A stretch of 39,311 nt of DNA, taken from the UHGV virus genome UHGV-0361196; one strand, written 5' to 3'. The notes beneath the pieces were generated by a model, which was not told the DNA's origin, made no database searches, and was given only the letters and a program-made list of their open reading frames with translations. The position numbers and the translations under genes are program-made. The stretch is from a virus. Shown here in pieces: positions 1,965 through 39,268 of the stretch (the first letter of the stretch is position 1; every line of letters begins with the position of its first letter).

Positions 1965-2528
1965 ATGCACAGTCAGTTAAAAGAACGTATCCGGCTGATG
2001 CGCGCAAGGCTGGATAACGCCGCGCCGGTTGCTGAAATCCGGGCTGAATCTCAGCTTTTTGTGACTCCTGCCCCGGTCTGTGATCGCCTGGTGATGCTGG
2101 CGGAGATCAGCAACCGTGATCACATTCTGGAACCCTCTGCCGGCACCGGGGCCATACTGCGGGCGATTCGTCATGTCGCGCCGGGGGCCATGTGTGATGC
2201 GGTGGAGATTAACAGCGGGCTGGTCCGGTATCTGCGGGATAATTTTAACGGTGTCAGGGTTCAGTGTGGCGACTTCATGGAATGGCAGCCGGTGCAGTAT
2301 TACAGCCGGGTTATCATGAATCCGCCGTTCAGCCACGGGCAGGATATCCGGCATATCCTGCGGGCCTTTTCCCTGTTGCGTCCGGGTGGCGTGCTGGTCG
2401 CCGTCTGTCTCAACGGACCACGCCAGCAGGAGAAGCTGTTACCGTTTTCTGACGTCCGCGAGGAGCTGCCGCGCGGCACGTTTGCTTATACCGATGTCCC
2501 GACGATGATTATTCGTCTGCGTGCCTGA
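1965..2528 (+). CDS. SAM-dependent DNA N6-adenine methyltransferase, orphan (no adjacent endonuclease)
   Basis: SAM-binding motif EPSAGTGA (aa 56-63) followed by catalytic NPPF (aa 119-122), the motif order of gamma-class amino-methyltransferases; RBS GGAG upstream. Confidence 0.7.
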   Translation: MHSQLKERIRLMRARLDNAAPVAEIRAESQLFVTPAPVCDRLVMLAEISNRDHILEPSAGTGAILRAIRHVAPGAMCDAVEINSGLVRYLRDNFNGVRVQCGDFMEWQPVQYYSRVIMNPPFSHGQDIRHILRAFSLLRPGGVLVAVCLNGPRQQEKLLPFSDVREELPRGTFAYTDVPTMIIRLRA

Positions 2529-2599
2529 TGACACAGGGCCGGCGGGAGGATAAATGCCTGTCTGCCCGCGCCGGGAAAAAACGCGCGCCGGTGGCGCTG

Positions 2600-2632
2600 A
2601 AAGGGGCCGCGCTCACGCGCCGCCCCTTTCAT
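2600..2632 (+). terminator. candidate intrinsic terminator downstream of methyltransferase gene
   Basis: 12-bp GC-rich stem (AAAGGGGCCGCGC / GCGCCGCCCCTTT, one mismatch) with loop TCAC, followed by TTTCATT. Confidence 0.45.
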
Positions 2633-2694
2633 TACGCGGACGTTCTGATGGGGGCTTCTGTTTCTTCATGCCTGTCATTTGTCTGTTACTTATA

Positions 2695-2870
2695 GAGAGG
2701 TAAATCATTTGATACTGCTGAAAAATCCGGGAGGAAAGTGGATCAAACGGGATTTGATGGGATAAAACAAACAGTTATGACGTAAAACAGTGTTATGCGC
2801 ACAACATGTGATTTGATACTACTGTCGCAAAGAAAGCTAAAAACGAAAAAATATTTGATACTACTGATTT
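2695..2870. repeat. left end (attL-like) with three putative transposase-binding repeats
   Basis: TTTGATAC at 2708..2715, 2812..2819 and 2854..2861 in the same orientation; L1 is about 100 bp from the adjacent L2/L3 pair, as in Mu attL; the reverse complement GTATCAAA recurs three times at the right end. Confidence 0.6.
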
Positions 2871-2895
2871 CTGCGATTTTAACGTTTTAAACAGG

Positions 2896-2932
2896 TTAAA
2901 AAACCAGCCGCGGGCTATTGGAATTAGCCCGC
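2896..2932 (-). terminator. candidate intrinsic terminator of repressor gene
   Basis: 8-bp stem GCGGGCTA / TAGCCCGC (2910..2917 / 2925..2932) with 7-nt loop; plus-strand A-run 2898..2903 gives a U-run after the hairpin on the minus strand; stem overlaps the stop codon. Confidence 0.4.
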
Positions 2933-3508
2933 CTTCGATTCTAAACTACTTGAGAGTTTATCGCTTTCAATTTCTGCCAAAATCTCTCTAACTCTTTCAT
3001 CCGATAAATGATCTAAAAGTAGAGCTGCTGCACGTTTTCGTCCTTCAAGTTGGATTAGTTCTTGATTCTCTGGTTCAAGTAACCGTGACAAGTACTTAGC
3101 TCCATTTAGCGCGAGGATTTTTGATAATCGCTCTGCCTCTGATGCTTCTAAAGCACTTAGTATAGCAAGAAGGCGCTGTAGCGTTATATCTAGGGGCAAT
3201 TGGACGTTTTCATCTATTTTAGGTGATATTGGTTCTATATCCTCCTTGCCAAAAACAAGCCAATCAATGCTCACCCCTTCTGCAAAAGCAATCTGACTAG
3301 CTACTTGTAGAGATGGTGTCGCATCTTTCTCAAAGTAGTTGTTAAGTGTTGAGAACGGTAGCCCCCACGCCTTCGCCACGGCAGTCTTGGAGCGCCCGCG
3401 CATTAGCATGGCTAGGCGCTCTTTAATGCTTTCTTTTTGAAACACAGGAAAAGAAAAATCACTTTCTTTTTCAGTGCTTCTTTCTTTTCTGTTAACCATA
3501 TGATTCAT
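2924..3508 (-). CDS. prophage repressor with XRE/lambda-cI-like HTH (Mu c functional equivalent)
   Basis: Only minus-strand gene in the prophage, divergent from ner as in Mu; HTH-like segment SKTAVAKAWGLPFSTLNNY followed by GVSIDWLVFG; start ambiguous (ATG 3508 or 3499 preferred over the GTG at 3559 that gives the 211-aa track ORF). Confidence 0.7.
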   Translation of the reverse strand: MNHMVNRKERSTEKESDFSFPVFQKESIKERLAMLMRGRSKTAVAKAWGLPFSTLNNYFEKDATPSLQVASQIAFAEGVSIDWLVFGKEDIEPISPKIDENVQLPLDITLQRLLAILSALEASEAERLSKILALNGAKYLSRLLEPENQELIQLEGRKRAAALLLDHLSDERVREILAEIESDKLSSSLESKAG

Positions 3509-3648
3509 AAAGAAATATCCTTTTGTAGATAAAAACCACCAAAGAAAGAGATAAAACACCTTTACTTTTCTTTTGTAGTGATCAAATATTTATCTGTAGA
3601 GATTATCCGGCGGTGTTATCCGCGCAGATAACTTTTAAGGATAAACGA
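3509..3648. promoter_or_regulatory. divergent early/repressor promoter-operator region
   Basis: Intergenic between divergent repressor and ner; repeated CTTTTGTAG-like motifs (about 3514..3530 and 3569..3585; variant TATCTGTAGAG about 3591..3601) and near-palindrome GTTATC-CGCGCA-GATAAC at 3615..3632; lies about 0.8-0.95 kb from the left end, where Mu has its operators and transposition enhancer. Confidence 0.5.
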
Positions 3649-3885
3649 ATGATGTCTATAAATGAAGTTGTTAAACAGGACTGGCACCCCGCGCATGTTG
3701 TCGCGGCGGTGCATGTAAAAGGTTTTACTTTACGCTCTCTGTCCATTGAAGCCGGTTTAAACCAGGATTCTTTAAAGAATGCCCTGTACCGCAAATGCCC
3801 AAAATATGAGCGCATTATTGCTGATGCTATTGGTGTTGCGCCGGAGGAGATCTGGCCCAGCCGTTACGCTCGTAAGGTGGCATAA
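3649..3885 (+). CDS. ner: Ner-like DNA-binding early regulator (Ner/Nlp family)
   Basis: C-terminal region ...ADAIGVAPEEIWPSRY resembles the Ner/Nlp family signature; RBS AGGA 9 nt upstream of ATG 3649; the track ORF from 3613 is probably a 5' over-extension. Confidence 0.8.
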   Translation: MMSINEVVKQDWHPAHVVAAVHVKGFTLRSLSIEAGLNQDSLKNALYRKCPKYERIIADAIGVAPEEIWPSRYARKVA

Positions 3886-3887
3886 AA

Positions 3888-5975
3888 ATGTTTGTATCAG
3901 TTAATGAGCTTGTAGGGTTACCAGGTATGCCGGGAACTGCGCAAGGGGTGCGGTATTCCATAAGGAAACTGGCCTCATCTGAGCATTTCAGGCGCAAACG
4001 TGCGGGTTCAAAAACCATTGAATACAGCATCGACTGCCTCCCTCCGGTTACACAACGGGCGTTACGTGAGCGACATGTAGCTCAACTGATGGCAAGCGCC
4101 CCGCGGGAGATAACTACCCAGCCTCCTGTAAAGCGTGAACGCAAACAAAATGTTGTACAGCCTGTTGAGGCATATCGCGGTTCGCCACAATTGGTAGAAG
4201 AGCGTCTGAATGCGCTTACGGAAAATCAACGTAAAGTTGCAGAAGCGCGCATTGCTCTTGTCTGTGAAGTTCTACGAATTAGCCAGGAGCCGGGATTCAG
4301 TTGTGCCAGCGCTATACGTTTTATTGTGTCGCGGTTAGCGCAGGGTAACCTGGAAGAACGCCTGGAATCTTTGGTCATTACTGCTAATGCCCGTAAAGGA
4401 AAAGAGCGAACTCTGAGCGCAATTACGCTCAAACGTTGGATAGCTGCGTTTAACAAAGCACAGAATGCCGCAGAACGACTGCTGTTACTGGCACCAGGAA
4501 AGCGCGACGAAATAAAACCGGAAGAAATTAGCTGGCTGCCTGAATTTCTGGCGCAGTATCGTCAGGCTAACGGCAGGCCTATGTCTGAAGCCTATGAGGA
4601 TTTTGTCGCTGATTGGCAGCGTCGCCATGCGGACGAACCATACATGCTGGAGGTGATGCCTTCCTATGATGTTGTCCGGTATGCCATGAAAAAACTGCCG
4701 GAAGTGGTGAAACAAAAAGGGCGCGTTACCGGCAGTGAATACCGTCAGCTTGAAGGATTCACCCGCCGCGACTGGACAGCTATGCCGGTGAATTATGTCT
4801 GGATTGGTGACGGTCACGGTATGAAGCTGAAATGTGCACATCCGATCCACGGGCGTCCATTCTCACCGGAAGTTACATTTGTGATCGACGGTGGAACCCG
4901 GTTTGTTGTTGGCTGGAGTCTTGACCTTGCCGAGAACGTGTTCGCCGTTGCCGGTGCGATACAGCACGGCATTCGCAACCACGGAAAACCGTTTCTGTAT
5001 TACTCGGATAATGGTTCTGGTGAAACGGCTGACATACTGGACAAAGAGGTCGTGGGTATTCTGCCCCGCCTGGGGATTAAACACCCTACCGGTATTGCCG
5101 GTAATCCACAGGGGCGCGGCATTATTGAACGCCTGAACCGGACACTGCCGATGCGTATAGCCAGGAGGTATCGCACCTATTTTGGCAAGGGTGCTGACCG
5201 GGAATCGTTGCGTGTACTTAACCGTGATCTGCGTTCAGCGTTTAACGCCATGCAACAGGACAAGCCTCTGAACGACCGCCAGAAAGCTGCAATGCGCGAG
5301 CTACCATCGTGGGCGGAGCTTATTGAGGCTATTCGTGAAGGCGTGGAATGGTACAACAACCGCCCGCATTCTGAGCTGCCAATGAAACCGAACGGGCGGC
5401 ATTACAGCCCGGCAGAGTTCAGAAAAAAACGCCTGGCAGAAGAAGACACCGAAATTGAGTGGCTGAGTGATCTTGAGCTGCGCGACATGTTCCGCCCGAT
5501 GGTGGAACGCCCGGTAAGACGGTGCGAAATTCAGTGGCTGAACAATATTTACTACGCGCCGGAGTTGCGTGACGAACACGGTCGCAAAGTACTTATCAGT
5601 TATGACATTCATGACGCCGAGCGAATTACGGTACGTCGCAAGGACGGCAGCTTTATCTGTGAGGCGATATGGAACGGCAATAAACGCACAGCCTTTGCTG
5701 TCAGTGCTGAATATCACAAACAACAGCAGCGTATTAAAGGAATGCGCAAACGTGCTGAGGAAAAAATTCGTGATGCTGAGGATGAAGGCATTCAGATACT
5801 GGAGCACAAACAGGCTGAACCCTGGCTGGATAATGTTTATCGCCCGGTTGGCAATACGGTAACCATCCAGCAACAGGATTATGAGGAGGATTACGACGAA
5901 GATTATGAACGCGATTTCAGGCTGGGTTTGCAGAAGCTTGTAGCCATACAGGAACAGGATGATCCGCTGGCCTGA
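3888..5975 (+). CDS. DDE transposase, MuA family (divergent from Mu A)
   Basis: 695 aa; N-terminal enhancer-binding-like domain (VNELVGLPGMPGT...KTIEY) and candidate DDE residues in IGDGHG, YYSDNGSG and GIIERLNRTL, aligned by eye to Mu A catalytic core; acidic C-terminus; RBS AAGGTGG. Confidence 0.9.
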   Translation: MFVSVNELVGLPGMPGTAQGVRYSIRKLASSEHFRRKRAGSKTIEYSIDCLPPVTQRALRERHVAQLMASAPREITTQPPVKRERKQNVVQPVEAYRGSPQLVEERLNALTENQRKVAEARIALVCEVLRISQEPGFSCASAIRFIVSRLAQGNLEERLESLVITANARKGKERTLSAITLKRWIAAFNKAQNAAERLLLLAPGKRDEIKPEEISWLPEFLAQYRQANGRPMSEAYEDFVADWQRRHADEPYMLEVMPSYDVVRYAMKKLPEVVKQKGRVTGSEYRQLEGFTRRDWTAMPVNYVWIGDGHGMKLKCAHPIHGRPFSPEVTFVIDGGTRFVVGWSLDLAENVFAVAGAIQHGIRNHGKPFLYYSDNGSGETADILDKEVVGILPRLGIKHPTGIAGNPQGRGIIERLNRTLPMRIARRYRTYFGKGADRESLRVLNRDLRSAFNAMQQDKPLNDRQKAAMRELPSWAELIEAIREGVEWYNNRPHSELPMKPNGRHYSPAEFRKKRLAEEDTEIEWLSDLELRDMFRPMVERPVRRCEIQWLNNIYYAPELRDEHGRKVLISYDIHDAERITVRRKDGSFICEAIWNGNKRTAFAVSAEYHKQQQRIKGMRKRAEEKIRDAEDEGIQILEHKQAEPWLDNVYRPVGNTVTIQQQDYEEDYDEDYERDFRLGLQKLVAIQEQDDPLA

Positions 5976-5982
5976 ATAAAAA

Positions 5983-6006
5983 AACAGTCCGCGGGAACGG
6001 ACTGTT
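5983..6006 (-). terminator. hairpin between A and B, terminator-like on the minus strand
   Basis: 9-bp stem AACAGTCCG / CGGACTGTT with 6-nt loop; a run of 7 A precedes it on the plus strand (U-run after the hairpin on the minus strand); no T-run after it on the plus strand. Confidence 0.35.
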
Positions 6007-6048
6007 AAACGAAGGAAACAAAGCTGATTTGAATAAACGGAGAATAAT

Positions 6049-6981
6049 ATGACCGATATTAATGATGTTTTCAACACGATTAACACACTTATTACTGACG
6101 GCGTAAAAACACAAAGCGCTATTGCTAAAGAAGCGGGGGTGTCGGAGGCCACTCTTTCTGAACTTCGCAAAGGCCGTTACAAAGGTGATACCGAAGGGAT
6201 GCATGACAAATTACTGATGTGGCATCAGAGCTGGCAAAAAAGTCTGGAGTTACCTGGCGCACCACAACTTGTGGAAACACAAACCCTCCGTGATTTGCGC
6301 GAGCTGTTTCAGACCGTGCGTGTTATGGGCTGTATCAGCGTTCTGGTTGGTGTGCCGGGTGTTGGTAAAACCGTTGCGGCCCGTGAATACAGTAACCGTG
6401 TATCTAATACCTGGATGGTGACCCTTTCCCCTGCACACTCAACAGTGACTGAGTGTCTGCTGGAGCTGGCAGACGCGCTGGGAATTGATAATCCGCAAAG
6501 AAATAAAGGCGCATTGACCCGCGCCATTCGCAAAAAACTGAATGGCACACGCGGTCTGGTTATTGTGGATGAAGCTGACCACCTGAGCATGGACGGGCTG
6601 GAGCAGTTACGCGCCATTCAGGATGCAACCGGCGTCGGGATGGTATTGATTGGCAACCCACACCAGTTAGCCAAAGCCACACACCGGGGAACAGATGACC
6701 TTGCACGTTTGTTCAGTCGTTTCGCCAGAACAAAGCAACTACGTAAAGCCAAAAAGGCTGACGTGGTGGCAATTGCGAAAGCCTGGGGCATTGAGGGCGA
6801 AGATGAATTATCACTCATGCAGAGCATCGCGGAAAAACCAGGTGCATTACGTGTATTAACTCATACGCTGAATCAGGCGTGGCTGGCTGCCAGCGGGAAA
6901 GGCGTTCCTCTATCCAAAGGCTACATTAAAGCAGCTTTTAAAGAGGTTTACAGCAACCCGAAATTACTGAACTGGTGGTAA
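6049..6981 (+). CDS. MuB-like AAA+ ATPase transposition target-capture protein
   Basis: 310 aa; Walker A GVPGVGKT and Walker B VIVDEADH; N-terminal HTH-like region; directly after transposase gene as in Mu; RBS GGAGA. Confidence 0.9.
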   Translation: MTDINDVFNTINTLITDGVKTQSAIAKEAGVSEATLSELRKGRYKGDTEGMHDKLLMWHQSWQKSLELPGAPQLVETQTLRDLRELFQTVRVMGCISVLVGVPGVGKTVAAREYSNRVSNTWMVTLSPAHSTVTECLLELADALGIDNPQRNKGALTRAIRKKLNGTRGLVIVDEADHLSMDGLEQLRAIQDATGVGMVLIGNPHQLAKATHRGTDDLARLFSRFARTKQLRKAKKADVVAIAKAWGIEGEDELSLMQSIAEKPGALRVLTHTLNQAWLAASGKGVPLSKGYIKAAFKEVYSNPKLLNWW

Positions 6982-6992
6982 GGGGATAAATA

Positions 6993-7220
6993 ATGATGTC
7001 ACGAAATATAAAAATGGCAACGGATGCGCAGAACTGGTTACAGGCGCGCGGGAGTCATGTAAATGAATCATATCTCGGCGTGGCGCGTCCGATTCTTGAA
7101 ATCACTTACCCACCGGTGGAACTGGTAAAAAACGCGGTCAGAATTATGGAGCATAAGTCCGGGGTGGCCCGTTCTGTATGGACGGCCCGTCTTAATGGTT
7201 GCCAGATTATCTGGAGATAA
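6993..7220 (+). CDS. hypothetical early protein (75 aa), positional equivalent of Mu kil
   Basis: First ORF after B; function not established from sequence. Confidence 0.5.
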
Positions 7221-7222
7221 CG

Positions 7223-7444
7223 ATGTGTATTAAAGCTGAAAAATATATTGAATGGGTTAAACACTGTCAGTGCCACGGGGTGCCGCTGACGACATATAAA
7301 TGCCCAGGATGCGGTGAACAGATTATGACGCAATGCTCACCCGAAAAGGAAATTCGGGATTCCCTGACATGTTGTCCGTGGTGCAGCGCAGTTTTCTTTA
7401 AGCAGGTAAAAGGCGCGAAGGTAAAAGCCAGCGCAGTTATTTAG
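7223..7444 (+). CDS. small zinc-ribbon protein (about 73 aa)
   Basis: Cys pairs CQCHG, CPGCG and CCPWC; RBS GGAGA about 10 nt upstream of ATG 7223; the track ORF from 7199 is an in-frame 5' extension. Confidence 0.5.
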   Translation: MCIKAEKYIEWVKHCQCHGVPLTTYKCPGCGEQIMTQCSPEKEIRDSLTCCPWCSAVFFKQVKGAKVKASAVI

Positions 7445-7464
7445 AATCAATAAGGAGAAGAAAA

Positions 7465-7734
7465 ATGGCAAAGGTTATCTTTGAGTTTACATGGCTGGAA
7501 AGTAGTGACAGTTGCAATGGGCGCAGAGAAGTTCTGGATGCAAAAGCATGTCTTGCAGATATCTCGCCAACGGAAAATACCGGGCCTCATGATTTACTGG
7601 CAAATATAGTCCTGACTATGGCTCCTGAAATTATTAAAAAGGCCAAAGATGAGATGCTGACCACTATGAAGAAAGTGGGTATGGAAGCTGAATGTGATTT
7701 AGTACCACGTCCGGTGAATGTGGTTAAACATTAA
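7465..7734 (+). CDS. hypothetical early protein (89 aa)
   Basis: Strong RBS AAGGAGAAG upstream of ATG; no motif recognised. Confidence 0.55.
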   Translation: MAKVIFEFTWLESSDSCNGRREVLDAKACLADISPTENTGPHDLLANIVLTMAPEIIKKAKDEMLTTMKKVGMEAECDLVPRPVNVVKH

Positions 7735-7754
7735 TTCGCAAAGGAACGCTGACA

Positions 7755-8174
7755 ATGAACGTCAAAATCCGAAATGAAATTCAGGCATTAATTCGAATTA
7801 AAATGCGTAATAACAATCCAGGAGAATTACGCGAGTTTATTTTCACCCGCAAAGTTTATGAGCATGGTGAAACTACTTATCTGATTACATTTGACCATTA
7901 CAGCATTTGTGCGCGTTATTGTGGCGAAAACATCTCTAATGCCATCACGTTTGGCGGTGCGTTTAACGAGGATTTATGGGAATACGTCATGGACCGCGAA
8001 TACATCTGCGCATCAGACCCTGAAGCCCGTGAAATGTGGCAGCGTATCTGGCGCGATTACCGGTTAATGGCAAAAGGCTGGGCGCGCTGCTGTTATTCCT
8101 CGCTTGCCCTGAAAGCGGTTCAGTTATCGCTGCGGCATATTCCGGCATCACTGCACGAGCCTCTGCTGTACTGA
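7755..8174 (+). CDS. hypothetical early protein (139 aa)
   Basis: RBS AAGGAA upstream of ATG; no motif recognised. Confidence 0.55.
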   Translation: MNVKIRNEIQALIRIKMRNNNPGELREFIFTRKVYEHGETTYLITFDHYSICARYCGENISNAITFGGAFNEDLWEYVMDREYICASDPEAREMWQRIWRDYRLMAKGWARCCYSSLALKAVQLSLRHIPASLHEPLLY

Positions 8175-8474
8175 ATGGTGACTGACATGAAGTGTAATCG
8201 TAAGCGCTGGTCACGCGAAGACCGGGAATTTATCGAAGCCAGCGTCGGGAAAATGACCATTGAAGAAATGGCGGAAAAACTGAACGTTGCCACAACCGCC
8301 CTCCGGGCACATGCCAGAAGGCACGGAATATCGTTGTGTGCATACCGGGTCAGTGAGCACGACAAATATTTGTGTCGTGAACTTTATAAAGAAGGACTGG
8401 ATATTCATGTCATTGCCCGAAAGATGGAATTAAGCAATCGAGCTGTATCCAGCATTGTATACAGCGGATATTAA
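8175..8474 (+). CDS. hypothetical early protein with HTH-like segments (99 aa)
   Basis: Two helix-turn-helix-like stretches (TIEEMAEKLNVATTALRAHARRHGI and LDIHVIARKMELSNRAVSSIV); start could instead be ATG 8187. Confidence 0.5.
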   Translation: MVTDMKCNRKRWSREDREFIEASVGKMTIEEMAEKLNVATTALRAHARRHGISLCAYRVSEHDKYLCRELYKEGLDIHVIARKMELSNRAVSSIVYSGY

Positions 8475-8493
8475 TTAACAGGAGCTTTAATTT

Positions 8494-9018
8494 ATGGCTA
8501 AACCAGCAAAACGTATCAAAAGTGCCGCAGCGGCTTATGTGCCACAAAACCGCGATGCGGTGATTACCGATATTAAACGCATCGGGGATTTACAGCGCGA
8601 AGCATCACGTCTGGAAACGGAAATGAATGATGCCATCGCGGAAATTACGGAGAAATTTGCAGCCCGGATTGCACCGATTAAAACCGATATTGAAACCCTT
8701 TCAAAAGGCGTTCAGGGATGGTGTGAAGCGAACCGCGACGAACTGACAAACGGCGGCAAAGTGAAGACGGCGAATCTTGTCACCGGTGATGTATCGTGGC
8801 GGGTCCGTCCACCCTCAGTAAGTATTCGTGGTATGGATGCAGTGATGGAAACGCTGGAGCGTCTTGGCCTGCAACGCTTTATTCGCACGAAGCAGGAAAT
8901 CAACAAGGAAGCGATTTTACTGGAACCGAAAGCGGTCGCAGGTGTTGCCGGAATTACTGTTAAATCGGGAATTGAAGATTTTTCCATTATTCCGTTTGAA
9001 CAGGAAGCCGGTATTTAA
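8494..9018 (+). CDS. gam: Gam, host-nuclease inhibitor (DNA end-binding)
   Basis: 174-aa product matches my recollection of phage Mu Gam nearly residue for residue; RBS AGGAG. Confidence 0.9.
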   Translation: MAKPAKRIKSAAAAYVPQNRDAVITDIKRIGDLQREASRLETEMNDAIAEITEKFAARIAPIKTDIETLSKGVQGWCEANRDELTNGGKVKTANLVTGDVSWRVRPPSVSIRGMDAVMETLERLGLQRFIRTKQEINKEAILLEPKAVAGVAGITVKSGIEDFSIIPFEQEAGI

Positions 9019-9115
9019 TACCACCATTAATATTTAATTAATTCACATTCGTTTAATTATGGCGCGATGCGTCAGGGGACTACTCGCGCCTTAATCAGAA
9101 CCGGAGAGAATGAAA

Positions 9116-9664
9116 ATGAAAGCATGTGCTTATTTTAAACTGAGTGACGAAGCCGCTAACGGTTATACGATTCGCTGGCTAAAAGAGGTTTCTGTTAAGC
9201 GTGGTGAGATTATTGAGTCATTACAGCAATCAGTGAAAGCAATCGGTGTGTCTTTGTCTGGTGACAAAGGGCCTGAGAGGGTTACGCATGTCTGGTTTAG
9301 CTACTTACCACCGGAAGGATGGGGGATTAAATCAAGGACACTTTTCATTGGTGATATTCAGTTATGGGGCGCAATGCCGGATATGACAATACCGGCAGGT
9401 CGTGAGTACGGGAAGCTCATCCGGGACTGTGAAAATCAGCTCGAAAAACACCCGGATTTTCAGCGCTGGCTGTGCAATGAACTTAACGTGGCTACCGACG
9501 TTGACCTGTTTGACATCAGGTCCGTGTGGAAAATGCACCACAGCCGTGACGGATTCAGCATTTTGTTTGCAGTGTACCTTCTGGCTGGCGAAGTGAAGGG
9601 ACCGGTTCCCGCCGAATGCCAGCGCATTAAACATTCTGAATTTGTGGCGCTGACGGAGGAATAA
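9116..9664 (+). CDS. hypothetical early protein (about 182 aa)
   Basis: RBS GGAGAG 9 nt upstream of ATG 9116 (track start 9110 is 2 codons upstream); no motif recognised. Confidence 0.55.
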   Translation: MKACAYFKLSDEAANGYTIRWLKEVSVKRGEIIESLQQSVKAIGVSLSGDKGPERVTHVWFSYLPPEGWGIKSRTLFIGDIQLWGAMPDMTIPAGREYGKLIRDCENQLEKHPDFQRWLCNELNVATDVDLFDIRSVWKMHHSRDGFSILFAVYLLAGEVKGPVPAECQRIKHSEFVALTEE

Positions 9665-9667
9665 CCG

Positions 9668-10207
9668 GTGATTGATGCAAAAGTTCTGAATGGTGTCAGC
9701 ACATTATTACGGGCTTACGGGCGTCTGACCTGCGGGGTTCTGGCTGAAAAAATGAAGATGCTGCCCTCGTCAATGGTTTATTTCCTGCGTGATGCGGTTG
9801 ATGCAGGTGTGCTCACCGAATGCAACGGATTTTATGACGTTCCGCGCCCGCGTCCGACGCTGCCTGTAAGACGAAACGCAACTGAGCAGCCTGCTGTTGA
9901 TGATGCGGTGTGGTGCAACTGGCGTCGCTCATTACCCTGGGTGGAAGGTAATACCATCCCCGCTCTGGCAAAAGAGTTTGCAACGGGCGTGCTGACCTGT
10001 GAATCCGTTCACATCGTTGCAGAAGTGGATAACAGGATGTGCGAACAGGGAATGCCCCGTTTTGTGATGGCTTATATCGATATCCGGCTGGGGCGGTTTA
10101 TTTGCAGTTCAAGCGCCTGGAATATCACCGACCATGTACTGCGTTATCTCATCATTGATTTTTCATCAGCACCGGGTGTGGTGCAGGAGGCTGGTTGTGA
10201 AATTTGA
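9668..10207 (+). CDS. hypothetical early protein (179 aa), possible winged-helix N-terminus
   Basis: GTG start with GGAGG upstream; N-terminal helix-rich segment. Confidence 0.5.
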   Translation: MIDAKVLNGVSTLLRAYGRLTCGVLAEKMKMLPSSMVYFLRDAVDAGVLTECNGFYDVPRPRPTLPVRRNATEQPAVDDAVWCNWRRSLPWVEGNTIPALAKEFATGVLTCESVHIVAEVDNRMCEQGMPRFVMAYIDIRLGRFICSSSAWNITDHVLRYLIIDFSSAPGVVQEAGCEI

Positions 10208-10892
10208 AGACTGGGGTATTGATAAAAGTTGTGGCCGGGACGTCCTGGTGTACAAAAACTGTAGCGTGATTGAAGGAGAAGATGCCTGGCAGGTTCTGGA
10301 TATACTTCGTTCTGCTTTATGCAGAGCTGGCTATGTTACGCCAGCGTCAGTTAATGGCGGAACTGCCACTACCTGTATCAGAAATCAACTTTATAGTTTT
10401 TATACAGCCTACAACCGATGGTTAAAGAATGGGGCAATGGAGACGGGCGATGATGTATTTACCCGGGCTGCCGGATTATGTGCCAATGCTTACGATTATT
10501 TTGAATCAATCGGAGCAGACAGCGAGGCTGCGCTAGAACAATTACATGCGGATTTTGTCGCGAGTGGGCTGGATGAATCCCTGCCATTTAATGTAGATAA
10601 CGTGCACTACCATGATGAATGCCTACATGACAGATGCCACCTGAATTCAGCACGTGTGGCATGGGTTGAAAAACACTGTATTAGTTCTGATTCAGAAATA
10701 ACGGGGAAAAAGACAGTCGGTGAAAATTCGTATTCGTGGCTGGGGAAATTTACCACGGTGAAACAGGAATGCCCGACCTGCGGTAATGAAAACCCTGAAT
10801 ATCTGAAAGAGTGCCCTCATTGTGGCGGGCAGAAATGCAACCACTGCGATATGGGCGATGACACAGCGTGCATGAATTGTGAAGGTGAGTGA
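10197..10892 (+). CDS. Cys-rich protein with C-terminal tandem zinc-ribbon motifs (about 231 aa)
   Basis: Four CxxC motifs in the last 40 aa (CPTCG, CPHCG, CNHCD, CMNCE) plus a His/Cys cluster HYHDECLHDRCH; GTG 10197 preceded by GGAGG at 7 nt is preferred over the overlapping ATG at 10134. Confidence 0.5.
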   Translation: MKFEDWGIDKSCGRDVLVYKNCSVIEGEDAWQVLDILRSALCRAGYVTPASVNGGTATTCIRNQLYSFYTAYNRWLKNGAMETGDDVFTRAAGLCANAYDYFESIGADSEAALEQLHADFVASGLDESLPFNVDNVHYHDECLHDRCHLNSARVAWVEKHCISSDSEITGKKTVGENSYSWLGKFTTVKQECPTCGNENPEYLKECPHCGGQKCNHCDMGDDTACMNCEGE

Positions 10893-10893
10893 T

Positions 10894-11202
10894 ATGAATA
10901 ATGGTGTATTTTCAAAATCAGAAGAGCTTGCCGCCCTGCTGATTGCCGGTGGTTTGCCGAAAAAAGAAGTGCATGACTTTGTGAATTTTGTATATAACCC
11001 GTCTCATGAAAAAGCTATTGATGAGGTCATGGCGTACCGGTTTGGCATTATTGCTGAGTCACTGAGTCCTCACTGGATTATTGAAAATCTCCGCACTATT
11101 GCTGATGGCAAAGATAAATCAGCAGCCGTTGCTGCATTGGATGTGTTACGGCAAATGAGTCTGAAATTTTATCCTGAATTTATTCTGAGGGCCGCAAAAT
11201 GA
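10894..11202 (+). CDS. hypothetical early protein (102 aa)
   Basis: ATG 10894 with AGGTGA upstream, directly after the stop of the upstream gene. Confidence 0.5.
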   Translation: MNNGVFSKSEELAALLIAGGLPKKEVHDFVNFVYNPSHEKAIDEVMAYRFGIIAESLSPHWIIENLRTIADGKDKSAAVAALDVLRQMSLKFYPEFILRAAK

Positions 11203-11501
11203 ACAATGAAGATAAATTTACTCCCCTTAATATTGATAACGTCATGGCTGAAAAAAGGATGCTGGAACGTGTTCGCGCTATCGTTGAATATGGTATTAAG
11301 CATGAACTCACCGCCAGAGAAGTCCGTGACATTATCAACCGCGAAATGAATCGTCTGGAAACAGTAGTGGCACTGCAAAATGAAACAGCCCGCGAGGAGT
11401 ACATCCGCCGCAGGCTGGGGTTATCAGACCAGGATATTGTTACTGACGCTCATGTGTTTGAGGCTTTTGAGATCCGTCAGCATCTGGGCCTTACGAACTG
11501 A
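11199..11501 (+). CDS. hypothetical early protein (100 aa)
   Basis: ATGA start/stop overlap with upstream gene; charged helical product. Confidence 0.5.
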   Translation: MNNEDKFTPLNIDNVMAEKRMLERVRAIVEYGIKHELTAREVRDIINREMNRLETVVALQNETAREEYIRRRLGLSDQDIVTDAHVFEAFEIRQHLGLTN

Positions 11502-11552
11502 TGTGTAAATTCAGGCGGTGTTGCAGCACCGCCTCTTTCCGGAGGTACGATC

Positions 11553-12104
11553 ATGAGCCGCACATCCCTGATTAAATTAATCCATGTCGCCCGTCGGGAG
11601 CTACAACTCGACGACGACACTTACCGCGCCTTTCTGATGCAGAAAACGGGCAAAACCAGTTGCCGCGAGCTGACGGTAACGCAACTGGAACAGGTGCTCG
11701 ATGCCATGAAAGAACGCGGCTTTAAGAAGCTGATTAAACATCCACGTCGCCGCTTTAAGGGGTATGTCACGCCCCGCGAGAAGGTGTATAAAATCTGGCA
11801 GCAGATGGCAGAAGACGGTTTTATTACCGATGGCGGTGATGTGGCGCTGGACAGATATGTTCAACGCCTGACCACGAAACGTAATGGCGGACAGGGTGTT
11901 TCCACGCTGGCGTGGTGTCATGGCGACACCCTGTTGATTGTTCTCGAAACTCTCAAGCAGTGGCATATCCGCTGTATTCGTGAAGCCTTTTCCCGTCACG
12001 GGCTTCCGTTGCCGGTCAGTCCGTCCGGGCGTGAACTGCGCGGCTATGATGCCATGACGGCGGCTTATGCCCATGCCAGAAAGACACGGAGGATGGCACA
12101 ATGA
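11553..12104 (+). CDS. gemA: GemA-like early protein (Mu gp16 family)
   Basis: 183 aa beginning MSRTSLIKLIHVARRELQLDDDTYRAF, which I recognise as the Mu GemA family; sits immediately upstream of mor as in Mu; RBS GGAGG. Confidence 0.75.
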   Translation: MSRTSLIKLIHVARRELQLDDDTYRAFLMQKTGKTSCRELTVTQLEQVLDAMKERGFKKLIKHPRRRFKGYVTPREKVYKIWQQMAEDGFITDGGDVALDRYVQRLTTKRNGGQGVSTLAWCHGDTLLIVLETLKQWHIRCIREAFSRHGLPLPVSPSGRELRGYDAMTAAYAHARKTRRMAQ

Positions 12105-12490
12105 CGGAAGATTTATTTGGTGATTTGCAGGATGACACCATCCTGGCACATCTTGACAATCCCGCAGAGGATGCGTCACGCTTTCCGGCACTGCTGGCGG
12201 AGCTGAACGATTTACTGCGCGGGGAGTTGTCCCGGCTGGGTGTTGATCCTGCCCATTCACTGGAGATTGTTGTGGCTATCTGTAAGCATCTGGGTGGCGG
12301 TCAGGTCTACATTCCACGCGGTCAGGTTCTGGACTCGCTGATTCGGGATTTGCGTATCTGGAATGATTTTAACGGTCGCAACGTCAGCGAACTGACCACC
12401 CGTTATGGTGTCACTTTCAATACGGTTTACAAGGCCATTCGCCGGATGCGACGGCTGAAATACCGCCAGTACCAGCCCTCACTTCTGTAA
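12101..12490 (+). CDS. mor: Mor, middle-operon transcription activator
   Basis: 129 aa, Mor/C family with C-terminal HTH (...NGRNVSELTTRYGVTFNTVYKAIRR); near-identical to Mu Mor as recalled; paralogous to C at 13283..13705. Confidence 0.9.
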   Translation: MTEDLFGDLQDDTILAHLDNPAEDASRFPALLAELNDLLRGELSRLGVDPAHSLEIVVAICKHLGGGQVYIPRGQVLDSLIRDLRIWNDFNGRNVSELTTRYGVTFNTVYKAIRRMRRLKYRQYQPSLL

Positions 12491-12495
12491 ACAGT

Positions 12496-12520
12496 AAAGC
12501 CGGTTAATCCGGCTTTTTTT
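12496..12520 (+). terminator. intrinsic terminator after mor
   Basis: 8-bp stem AAAGCCGG / CCGGCTTT with loop TTAAT, followed by a run of 7 T. Confidence 0.7.
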
Positions 12521-12567
12521 ACGTCCTCAATATCCTGTGATGAATAACCGTACCGGGGGAAATCATC

Positions 12568-12786
12568 ATGGGTAAAGGCTGGAATGCATCCTTTCATCTT
12601 GGCAGACGTGAGCGGCTGCGTCAGGAGGTTTTGCACCGTGTCGCCGGTGGGCCACGGCCTGCGCCCCGCGACTATACCGGTCATGATGGCACCCACGGCA
12701 GTTATTACATGAAAGGCTGGCAGTCAGTTGATATGCCGGAAATTCTTCATCATTGCCTGCTTTACAGGGAGAAACATTATGTCTGA
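12568..12786 (+). CDS. hypothetical protein (72 aa)
   Basis: ORF with GGGGGA upstream; His/Arg-rich; weak call. Confidence 0.4.
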   Translation: MGKGWNASFHLGRRERLRQEVLHRVAGGPRPAPRDYTGHDGTHGSYYMKGWQSVDMPEILHHCLLYREKHYV

Positions 12787-13141
12787 GCGTTCTGCTCGTC
12801 AGTGGCCTGATTTTTTATCGGTGGTATTACTGGCGCTGTTATTGTGGATAAGTCTGTTTTGTGGCTGGCGCGCGCTGATGTTTTGCTGTGCCTCGGTTTT
12901 CAGTGTTGCTTTATGTGTTGCCGCTGATTGTCTGGATGCGCTGATAATGAGCTGCCGGGTGCCTGAACATTTTGCCCGGTTCGTCTGGCCTCTGACCTGG
13001 CTGGGGAGTCTGTCCGGGCTGGGATTAGCCGTGATGGCAACGTCTCAACTGAAAACGGGTCCTGAGCATGTCATCTGGGCGCTGGCCGGATTGCTGACGT
13101 TCTGGCTCTCCTTTCGTTTTCGCGCTCGTCTGTTCGGGTAA
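12779..13141 (+). CDS. multi-pass membrane protein, holin candidate (about 120 aa)
   Basis: ATG 12779 preceded by GGGAGA; three to four hydrophobic segments; lies between mor and C, where Mu carries a small membrane protein. Confidence 0.5.
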   Translation: MSERSARQWPDFLSVVLLALLLWISLFCGWRALMFCCASVFSVALCVAADCLDALIMSCRVPEHFARFVWPLTWLGSLSGLGLAVMATSQLKTGPEHVIWALAGLLTFWLSFRFRARLFG

Positions 13142-39190: not shown

Positions 39191-39268
39191 TATCAAATAA
39201 TTTTTCGTTGTGCCGTTTTGGGTGGTATCAAAAAAAATTCAAAACGGTATCAAATGATTTTGCGCGCT
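39186..39268. repeat. right end (attR-like) with three putative transposase-binding repeats
   Basis: GTATCAAA at 39190..39197, 39225..39232 and 39247..39254, the reverse complement of the left-end TTTGATAC motif; the outermost 14-mer AAATCATTTGATAC is shared by both ends in inverted orientation. Confidence 0.6.

Follow-up and report, generated by a model that had tools for sequence, protein, structure and literature searches.

The window analysed here is the whole 39,311-nucleotide stretch of a viral genome (UHGV virus genome UHGV-0361196). Five short open reading frames (ORFs) were tightly packed on its plus strand at positions 6993–8474, bounded on the left by a MuB-type gene (6049–6981, plus strand; PF09077 and PF13401) and on the right by gam (8494–9018, plus strand; PF07352 at 4.1e-42), whose product was 100% identical to Mu Gam. 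The ORFs are kil (ORF1, 6993–7220, plus strand, 75 aa), gp6/E5 (ORF2, 7223–7444, plus strand, 73 aa counted from its ATG, with the longest frame opening upstream of that ATG at TTG 7199), the gene in the gp7/E6 slot (ORF3, 7465–7734, plus strand, 89 aa), gp8/E7 (ORF4, 7755–8174, plus strand, 139 aa), and gp9/E8 (ORF5, 8175–8474, plus strand, 99 aa, with a probable true start at 8187). Successive ORFs were separated by 2, 20, 20, and 0 nt, with a further gap of 19 nt between ORF5 and gam. Genes for Ner, MuA, MuB, Gam, Gp11_C, GemA, and Mor were found in the neighbourhood. The GC content of the cluster was 45.8%, compared with 55.6% for the late genes (13797–35000), so that both the compact layout and the AT-richness noticed in a preliminary description made from the sequence alone were borne out.

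That description also credited each ORF with a plausible ribosome-binding site, which held for four of the five. Shine-Dalgarno–like sequences preceded kil (GGGG, 6982–6985), gp6 (GGAG, 7213–7216), gp7 (AAGGAG, 7452–7457), and gp8 (AGGA, 7742–7745), but none was found before the first ATG of gp9 at 8175. Instead, GGTGA (8177–8181) lies 5 nt ahead of a second ATG at 8187, which was present in essentially all of 37 distinct gp9 alleles, while ATG 8175 was absent from many of them. Given the position of this ribosome-binding site and the conservation of the second ATG, the gp9 product is probably 95 aa rather than 99 aa long, which is also the length annotated by PGAP.

Comparison of the window with its relatives revealed purifying selection in frame for all five ORFs. 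The dN/dS ratios were 0.09–0.29 for kil (0.09–0.11 against the more divergent relatives), 0–0.49 for gp6, 0.36–0.83 for gp7 (0.25–0.29 within each allele class), 0.21–0.28 for gp8, and 0.22–0.32 for gp9. Off-frame ratios for kil, gp8, and gp9 mostly reached about 1 or exceeded it; those for gp6 and gp7 were 0.6–1.1, a weaker contrast with the in-frame values. This modest contrast, together with the absence of gp6 from many related prophages and the fact that PGAP leaves the gp6 intervals of E. coli S6, 2014C-3075, and A20 without a gene call, could mean that at least one of the ORFs, with gp6 as the main suspect, is not a real gene. We consider this extremely improbable, as all nine differences (9/9) between gp6 of the window and those of Mu, 2014C-3075, and S6 were synonymous, the dN/dS ratio against a 75%-identical allele was 0.38, and the ORF has a good ribosome-binding site, a start 2 nt past the kil stop, a PHROG family of its own, and cysteines retained in nearly all of 17 alleles (see below).

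The five ORFs are catalogued early genes of phage Mu and were already known; the only departure from the ordinary is a swapped-in variant of one gene. The cluster was colinear with positions 4315–5781 of Mu (NC_000929), and its DNA was ~90–95% identical to Mu, D108, Mu_3F6, SfMu, and Yersinia Mu-like phages, whose annotations in this region read kil, gp6–gp9, and gam. All five proteins had full-length PHROG matches. In Mu, the counterparts (Mup05, Mup06/E5, Mup08/E7, and Mup09/E8) are likewise placed between B and gam, on the same strand and with the same order and spacing. Protein identities were 97% (kil), 100% over 73 aa (gp6), 88% (gp8), and 95% (gp9), and the DNA was 94–100% identical except in gp7 and the 5' half of gp8. 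The remaining ORF (ORF3) was 97% identical to gp7 of Mu_3F6. We therefore assign the cluster, with high confidence, to the semi-essential early region of a transposable prophage of the Mu family, in which it forms the part nearest the promoter and comprises kil and orthologues of gp6–gp9. The preliminary description had correctly recognised a Mu-type early operon and placed the cluster in its accessory part, which lies between B and gam and includes kil. It had gone astray in holding that no ORF could be assigned, and the high identity to Mu early proteins that it had named beforehand as counting against novelty is what was obtained.

The genes to the left of the cluster differ from those of Mu, as c, ner, A, and B of the window are of another type and its B protein was only 43.5% identical to Mu B. 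In the alignment, DNA similarity to Mu began at ~6988; the 3' end of B was unrelated to Mu, and identity ran from the start of kil. The short interval 6979–6992 (plus strand) holds the B stop codon, an 11-nt spacer with the ribosome-binding site of kil, and the mosaic junction; a c/ner/A/B module of non-Mu type is joined here to a Mu-like kil–gam module exactly at the B/kil spacer. Two other genomes help to delimit the exchanged parts. Escherichia virus Mu_3F6 (LR595867) carries the same five genes with the same gp7 allele class and was 95.5% identical in DNA over 95% of the query, but has A and B of the Mu type and the common gp8 allele. A prophage of E. coli S6 (NZ_CP107134) carries the same five genes and the same gp7 class, and was 99.2% identical in DNA over 6000–9100, differing from the window by 11 nt in gp9.

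Kil is a genetically characterised protein. The Kil of the window had 97% amino acid identity to Mu Kil, was basic (pI 10.2) and soluble, and matched phrog_2743 at E=4.9e-43 over residues 1–75 of 75. No match was found in the Pfam copy that we scanned, which apparently lacks the model for PF26843 (Kil_protein); precomputed assignments to this family were present on all 121 Kil homologues found, including proteins 85–97% identical to that of the window. An AlphaFold2 model of Kil reached a pLDDT of 93.3 and returned no significant structural match, and no significant match came from sequence searches of the PDB with Kil, gp8, or gp9. According to the literature, expression of Mu kil kills E. 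coli and turns its cells spherical (PMC3961180, citing Waggoner 1989; PMC3325207), and deletion of the Mu semi-essential region, where kil lies along with unassigned ORFs of the early transcript, restores the viability of the host (PMC3325207). On the basis of these reports, the Kil of the window would be a host-killing protein. It shares its name and the character of a small toxic early phage protein with Kil of phage lambda and Kil of Rac, which are division inhibitors directed at FtsZ. [quoted passage not shown]

The gp6 protein agreed with Mu gp6 at all 73 residues, the Mu protein being three residues longer at its C-terminus, and matched phrog_3786 at 2.1e-39. The preliminary description had called it zinc-ribbon-like from three cysteine motifs, all of which are present in ORF2. 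Two of them, CPxC at residues 27–30 and CPWC/CPFC at residues 51–54, were kept in nearly all of 17 gp6 alleles, and the four cysteines C27-x2-C30 and C51-x2-C54 were retained even in an allele with 31% identity (L074); the exceptions were one allele with a C54Y substitution (L010) and one truncated allele (L027). The third motif, CQCHG, for which other alleles have VQNNN or LEAQS, lies outside the conserved metal site. Scores of gp6 fell below the curated cut-offs of the zinc-ribbon models TIGR02605 (18.1 vs 31.3 bits) and NF047912 (16.1 vs 37), and below that of PF17848 (14.9 vs 24.5). We classify gp6 as a predicted four-cysteine zinc ribbon.

The gp7 slot is occupied by an acidic protein of the Mu_3F6 type (the W allele), with 40% identity to D108 gp7 and 24% to Mu gp7, and a match to phrog_2230 at 5.7e-35. 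Proteins in this slot were 82–89 aa long and shared their first eight residues and a C-terminal histidine, while residues 9–33 were hypervariable. Positive selection in gp7 was considered and rejected, as codons 9–33 evolved faster (dN/dS of 0.5–0.6 vs 0.14–0.25 elsewhere) yet remained below 1. The Mu occupant of the slot (gp7/E6/Mup07) is gnarl2, listed as NP_050611.1 in the supplement of Silas et al. (Nat Commun 2025, PMC12373910), and the Mu allele was reported to shift O-antigen bands downwards and to make wild E. coli sensitive to T5 (PMC12373910). Like window gp7, gnarl2 lies between gp6 and gp8, has a similar length (87 vs 89 aa), and has the N-terminus MAKVI.E. and the C-terminal histidine; the two differ in their low global identity and in their PHROG families (10252 vs 2230).

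The relationship between window gp7 and gnarl2 was traced through intermediates. Direct BLASTP of window gp7 against gnarl2 gave no alignment, window gp7 had no match to phrog_10252, and Mu gp7 matched phrog_2230 weakly (E=0.009). A direct hhalign comparison gave E=0.058 after the nine shared N-terminal residues were removed. A BLASTP path via intermediates led from the W allele to Mu gp7 with every link at 1.7e-7 or better, the hhalign chain without the N-terminus gave 2e-19 (W–D), 1.4e-5 (D–X), and 4.6e-6 (X–Mu), and the gp7 proteins of the window, Mu, and D108 fell into one single-linkage cluster. An hhalign value of 3.9e-27, obtained with intermediates pooled with Mu-type gp7, was discounted since the pool held D108-like sequences. 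From its sequence, window gp7 appears to be no more than a distant relative of gnarl2, linked to it transitively, and in view of the missing direct BLASTP match, the function of gnarl2 is not simply transferable to it. The slot would carry one of three allele classes that replace one another within a single family of small proteins, and gnarl2 would thereby belong to a three-class allele family. It is conceivable, though somewhat unlikely, that the slot encodes a rapidly exchanged family of gnarl2-type effectors of the host surface, whose alleles are reshuffled between Mu-like prophages so as to fit the surface of the host. If so, the W-type allele would differ from gnarl2 in its target or host-serotype specificity within lipopolysaccharide/O-antigen synthesis; any lipopolysaccharide effect of the window allele is something that we infer from the position of the gene and the work on gnarl2.

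The gp8 protein was 88–89% identical to gp8 of Mu, D108, and 3F6, and matched phrog_3690 at 6.3e-87. The 5' half of the gene (~7800–7960) is a distinct allele, as the DNA identity over 7732–7956 was 74–82% to Mu and 3F6 versus 100% to E. coli S6. An AlphaFold2 model from an 11-sequence alignment was unusable (pLDDT of 42.8), and an exhaustive profile search with gp8 recovered, besides some fragments, a single full-length cluster and two remote relatives, with no link to any known domain; an apparent relative with 42% identity (P0022) was dropped as a frameshifted copy. No fold can be assigned to gp8, which is restricted to this lineage and linked to kil by synteny. In 68 of 68 IMG/VR loci, kil was preceded on its own strand by a MuB homologue, and in the loci of the two remote gp8 relatives the gp8-like gene is intercalated between MuB and the Kil-family gene, adjacent to both, and overlaps the start of the latter. 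The Kil and gp8 families co-occur in this way across ~25–40% identity while the surrounding genes change, which might mean that they form a functional pair in which gp8 modulates, targets, or neutralises Kil. Although compatible with the assignment of the cluster to the Mu early region, such a pairing is improbable, because five close relatives (L048, L051, L053, L055, and L057) have kil, gp7, gp9, and gam and lack gp8, and because two other genes separate kil from gp8 in the Mu lineage. We regard the kil–gp8 linkage in remote lineages, the confident Kil model, the place of gnarl2 among the gp7 alleles, and the map of fixed and exchangeable parts given below as leads for work on host takeover by Mu, not as discoveries.

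The gp9 protein, 95% identical to Mu gp9, matched phrog_323 ("transcriptional regulator, D5-like") at 3.4e-28. Two helix-turn-helix (HTH)–like segments had been noticed beforehand in one of the proteins, and ORF5 had Pfam HTH matches in two separate segments (~residues 9–53 and 69–94), all under the gathering scores. Weak similarity was also found to Cbp1, a tandem-HTH family, and to 2lvs, and BLASTP of the two halves against each other found no internal duplication. Taken together, gp9 is a predicted DNA-binding protein with two HTH segments.

A consensus scan of positions 2600–12100 found no promoter-like or terminator-like site on the plus strand, and the early promoter itself was also missed. 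Promoter-like matches numbered seven, against a shuffle expectation of 12.9; those on the minus strand inside kil and gp6 were disregarded because the total count was below this expectation. Rfam gave no match in 2500–13000. The first terminator-like site on the plus strand was located at 12496–12516, just after mor. [quoted passage not shown] Their products would be small soluble proteins acting on the host, not on phage assembly.

Over 79 related loci, the architecture of the region was B–kil–gp7–gp9–gam, with gp6 present or absent after kil, gp8 present or absent after gp7, and three allele classes of gp7, confirming the earlier remark that Mu-like phages diversify here. The order in the window (gp6–gp7W–gp8–gp9) was the commonest of at least six arrangements. 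The block changes through cassette exchange at gene boundaries, and the comparison separates its fixed parts (kil and gp9) from its exchangeable parts (gp6, gp7, and gp8). The variable presence of gp6 and gp8 among relatives, the 37–82% DNA identity to Mu in gp7 and in the 5' half of gp8, and the lack of a curated Pfam or NCBIfam assignment for any of the five proteins might be taken as signs of a novel accessory or anti-defence island particular to this prophage, a view suggested by the way the preliminary description had framed the cluster. However, every ORF had a 97–100% identical counterpart in public phages or prophages, the close match to E. coli S6 extended over the whole block, the exact sequences of the five proteins were each public on 99–588 contigs, and PADLOC returned no significant matches to defence systems. 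The novelty of the block is refuted by these findings, and an island of this kind is very unlikely.

The cluster as part of the Mu early region is textbook material, with the same proteins in hundreds of sequenced Enterobacterales genomes. Among complete E. coli genomes, the region was present in 90 of 5,426.

The five plus-strand ORFs at 6993–8474 are previously described Mu genes, kil and E5–E8. They occur in the arrangement seen most often, and public collections already contain their exact sequences. Both the ORF list and the sequence placed them exactly where the preliminary description had, with kil at 6993–7220, gp6 at 7223–7444, gp7 at 7465–7734, gp8 at 7755–8174, and gp9 at 8175–8474, separated by gaps of 2, 20, 20, and 0 nt. 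A megablast search of 6900–8560 against phage records matched 14 Mu-group genomes (Mu, D108, SfMu, Mu_3F6, PhiR68_1, and Yersinia Mu-like phages), the DNA match beginning at ~6988, directly past the B stop codon. The annotated records name the genes kil (Mup05), gp6 (formerly E5), gp7 (E6), gp8 (E7), gp9 (E8), and gam. Relative to Mu, protein identity was 97% (Kil), 100% over 73 aa (gp6), 24% (gp7), 88% (gp8), 95% (gp9), and 100% (Gam). The window gp7 was closer to its counterparts in Mu_3F6 (97%) and D108 (40%). The preliminary reading, a Mu-like phage's early accessory cluster, was right in general, and the named records and protein identities supply gene identities for ORFs that it could not assign to a known function from sequence.

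Each of the five ORFs had a full-length match to one PHROG family: kil to 2743 ("Kil"), gp6, gp7, and gp8 to 3786, 2230, and 3690, respectively (all labelled unknown function), and gp9 to 323 ("transcriptional regulator, D5-like"). The exact proteins were found in public collections on 588 (kil), 356 (gp6), 327 (gp7), 139 (gp8), and 99 (gp9) contigs, under source names including "putative phage kil protein", "Protein cim", "Mu prophage protein", and, for gp6, "RPC12/RpoP". Of 5,426 complete E. coli genomes, 90 contained the region, with a 99.2% match in strain S6. As described previously, the cluster was more AT-rich than the late genes (45.8% and 55.6% GC, respectively). A plausible ribosome-binding site had been proposed for every ORF; four had clear Shine-Dalgarno sequences, but none preceded the fifth start, ATG 8175. 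GGTGA lies five bases upstream of ATG 8187, which was kept in essentially all 37 distinct gp9 alleles, many without ATG 8175, and the resulting 95-aa form is also the call of the NCBI annotation pipeline (PGAP).

On sequence grounds, we take all five ORFs to be real genes. The dN/dS ratio was calculated per gene between the window and ten related loci, in frame and in the two other frames. In-frame values were 0.09–0.11 for kil against more divergent relatives, 0–0.39 for gp6 and 0.36–0.45 for gp7 in most comparisons, 0.21–0.28 for gp8, 0.22–0.32 for gp9, and 0.09 for Gam, versus mostly ~1 or above in the other two frames for kil, gp8, gp9, and gam. The weakest case is gp6, because PGAP omitted it from several complete genomes of E. 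coli despite an intact, conserved ORF (9222–9465 in locus L004; 1734–1977 in L008 and L010). All nine differences between the window gp6 and the Mu, 2014C-3075, and S6 alleles were synonymous, and the four key cysteines were retained in an allele of only 31% identity. Some related loci showed decay: E. coli A20 carried an internal stop in gp9 (2688–2987) and C54Y in gp6 (1736–1966), and gp7 was frameshifted in STEC346 (1756–2026).

The prophage in the window is a transposable element of the Mu family and encodes a CI/HTH_3-type repressor (2924–3559, minus strand), a Ner-type protein (3613–3885, PF13693), a MuA-type transposase (3888–5975), a MuB-type ATPase (6049–6981), and, to the right of the five ORFs, Gam (8494–9018), followed by a Gp11_C protein, GemA, and Mor. 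The window B protein shared only 43.5% identity with Mu B and 97% with B of the E. coli STEC346 prophage, and c-ner-A matched Yersinia phages vB_YpM_5 and vB_YpM_6 at 96%. The immunity/transposition module (2924–6981) differed from those of Mu and D108. In the alignment, likeness to Mu started at the kil start codon; DNA identity was 96–100% in kil and gp6, 37–65% in gp7, 74–82% in the first half of gp8, and 92–100% in the rest of gp8, gp9, and gam. Only three features are specific to the window: a junction with a non-Mu A/B module at the B/kil spacer, a gp7 allele of the Mu_3F6 type, and the variant first half of gp8. All three also occur in other sequenced E. coli prophages.

We compared 68 IMG/VR loci recruited with a Kil profile, together with phage and E. 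coli loci. Close relatives shared the layout B-kil-gp6-gp7-gp8-gp9-gam, with gp6 and gp8 each present or absent, and gp7 fell into three classes, W (window, Mu_3F6), D (D108), and MU (Mu), freely combined with flanking alleles. Among Gam-bearing loci, gp6-gp7W-gp8-gp9, as in the window, was found in 16, gp6-gp7MU-gp8-gp9 (Mu) in 11, gp7MU-gp8-gp9 in ten, gp7D-gp8-gp9 in nine, gp6-gp7D-gp8-gp9 (D108) in seven, and gp7D-gp9 in four, counts that are descriptive only since the sample was redundant. In some relatives, the gp6 position held an unrelated 70-aa ORF (MMVINIHDNLG...) or ~236 nt that may be its remnant (4158–4370 in L026; between kil and gp7 in L034, L042, L044, and L061); if so, the gp6 slot would also be a replaceable cassette. 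In distant relatives (Kil 39–57% identical), kil still followed B and the following genes were mostly different, with a gp9-like gene directly 3' of kil in four loci. An alternative conserved set followed kil in the distant Kil-bearing Mu-like elements L062–L079, encoding proteins of ~205–225, 88–92, 163–168, and 146–147 aa.

Mu gp7 (NP_050611.1) is "gnarl2", which, when expressed in wild E. coli, shifted O-antigen bands and increased sensitivity to T5 by five to six orders of magnitude (PMC12373910, accession confirmed in its supplement). The window gp7 gave no BLASTP alignment to gnarl2 and belongs to a different PHROG family. However, the 46 distinct proteins from the gp7 slot all grouped together by single linkage. 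After trimming of the nine N-terminal residues that the classes share, profile-profile comparison linked W to D (E=2e-19), D to an intermediate group (L064–L066, E=1.4e-5), and this group to MU (E=4.6e-6), versus E=0.058 for W to MU directly. All classes had an N-terminal MAKV[IV][FI]E[FI] and a terminal His. Residues 9–33 were hypervariable (1/25 identical between W and D, versus 18/29 at residues 34–62), and within-class dN/dS was 0.25–0.29 overall and 0.5–0.6 in the hypervariable part. The window gp7 is probably a remote gnarl2-family member and only a candidate for the O-antigen function.

The Kil family was confined to Enterobacterales, with PF26843 on every homologue. Kil is basic (pI 10.2), and its sequence contained no hydrophobic segment. 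An AlphaFold2 model from a 27-sequence alignment was confident (pLDDT 93.3, pTM 0.79), with a predicted topology of helix 2–18, strands 22–27 and 34–38, helix 42–46, and strands 49–55, 58–67, and 70–74. Deletion of the semi-essential early (SE) region restored host viability after infection by replication-defective Mu (PMC3325207). Expression of Mu kil yielded spherical cells, whereas Kil of lambda and Kil of Rac, which are unrelated to it, cause filaments (PMC3961180). Judging from this phenotype, the likeliest mechanism would be inhibition of the cell-elongation machinery through direct binding.

The zinc-ribbon-like character proposed for gp6 held in part: two CPxC knuckles (C27/C30, C51/C54), 20 residues apart, were kept, but the CQCHG motif was not conserved, and matches to zinc-ribbon profiles were all below cut-offs. 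The two HTH-like segments were supported by sub-threshold HTH matches at two separate segments of gp9, the second of which (HDxxLCRELYKEGLxIxxIAxKMELSNRxVSxIV) was its best-conserved part. The protein weakly resembled the tandem-HTH, CRISPR-repeat-binding Cbp1 family and, separately, PDB chain 2lvs (E=0.053), and BLASTP detected no similarity between its halves. No domain match was found for gp8, and when 1.84 billion representatives were searched exhaustively, the only hits were a single full-length cluster and two remote relatives. Because both remote relatives lay directly 3' of MuB and just upstream of a Kil-family gene, overlapping its start, there are hints of a functional tie to Kil, although five close relatives keep kil without gp8.

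A crude scan, which also missed the early promoter, found no promoter-like or terminator-like sites on the plus strand in 2600–12100, and Rfam gave no family match; the first terminator-like site was at 12496–12516, after mor. This absence fits the published single long early transcript, which spans A and B as well as the SE region (PMC3325207).

The putative prophage ends lay at ~2704–2717 and ~39246–39259, where the left AAATCATTTGATAC is the inverted complement of the right GTATCAAATGATTT, giving an element of ~36.56 kb; no matching 5-bp target duplication was seen at these two boundaries. The left flank (1–2700) was non-Mu and GC-rich (0.52–0.60), encoding a DUF3560 protein (557–1918, 453 aa) and a small methyltransferase (1965–2528, 187 aa), a gene pair typical of conjugative or integrative elements. 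The near-identical S6 prophage adjoins patD instead, so its insertion site is unlike that of the window. In the next accessory stretch, a 252-aa ORF (10134–10892) with no Pfam match carried a C-terminal cysteine cluster, CPTCG...CPHCGGQKCNHC...CMNC, and, in a different frame, overlapped the Gp11_C-containing ORF at its end.
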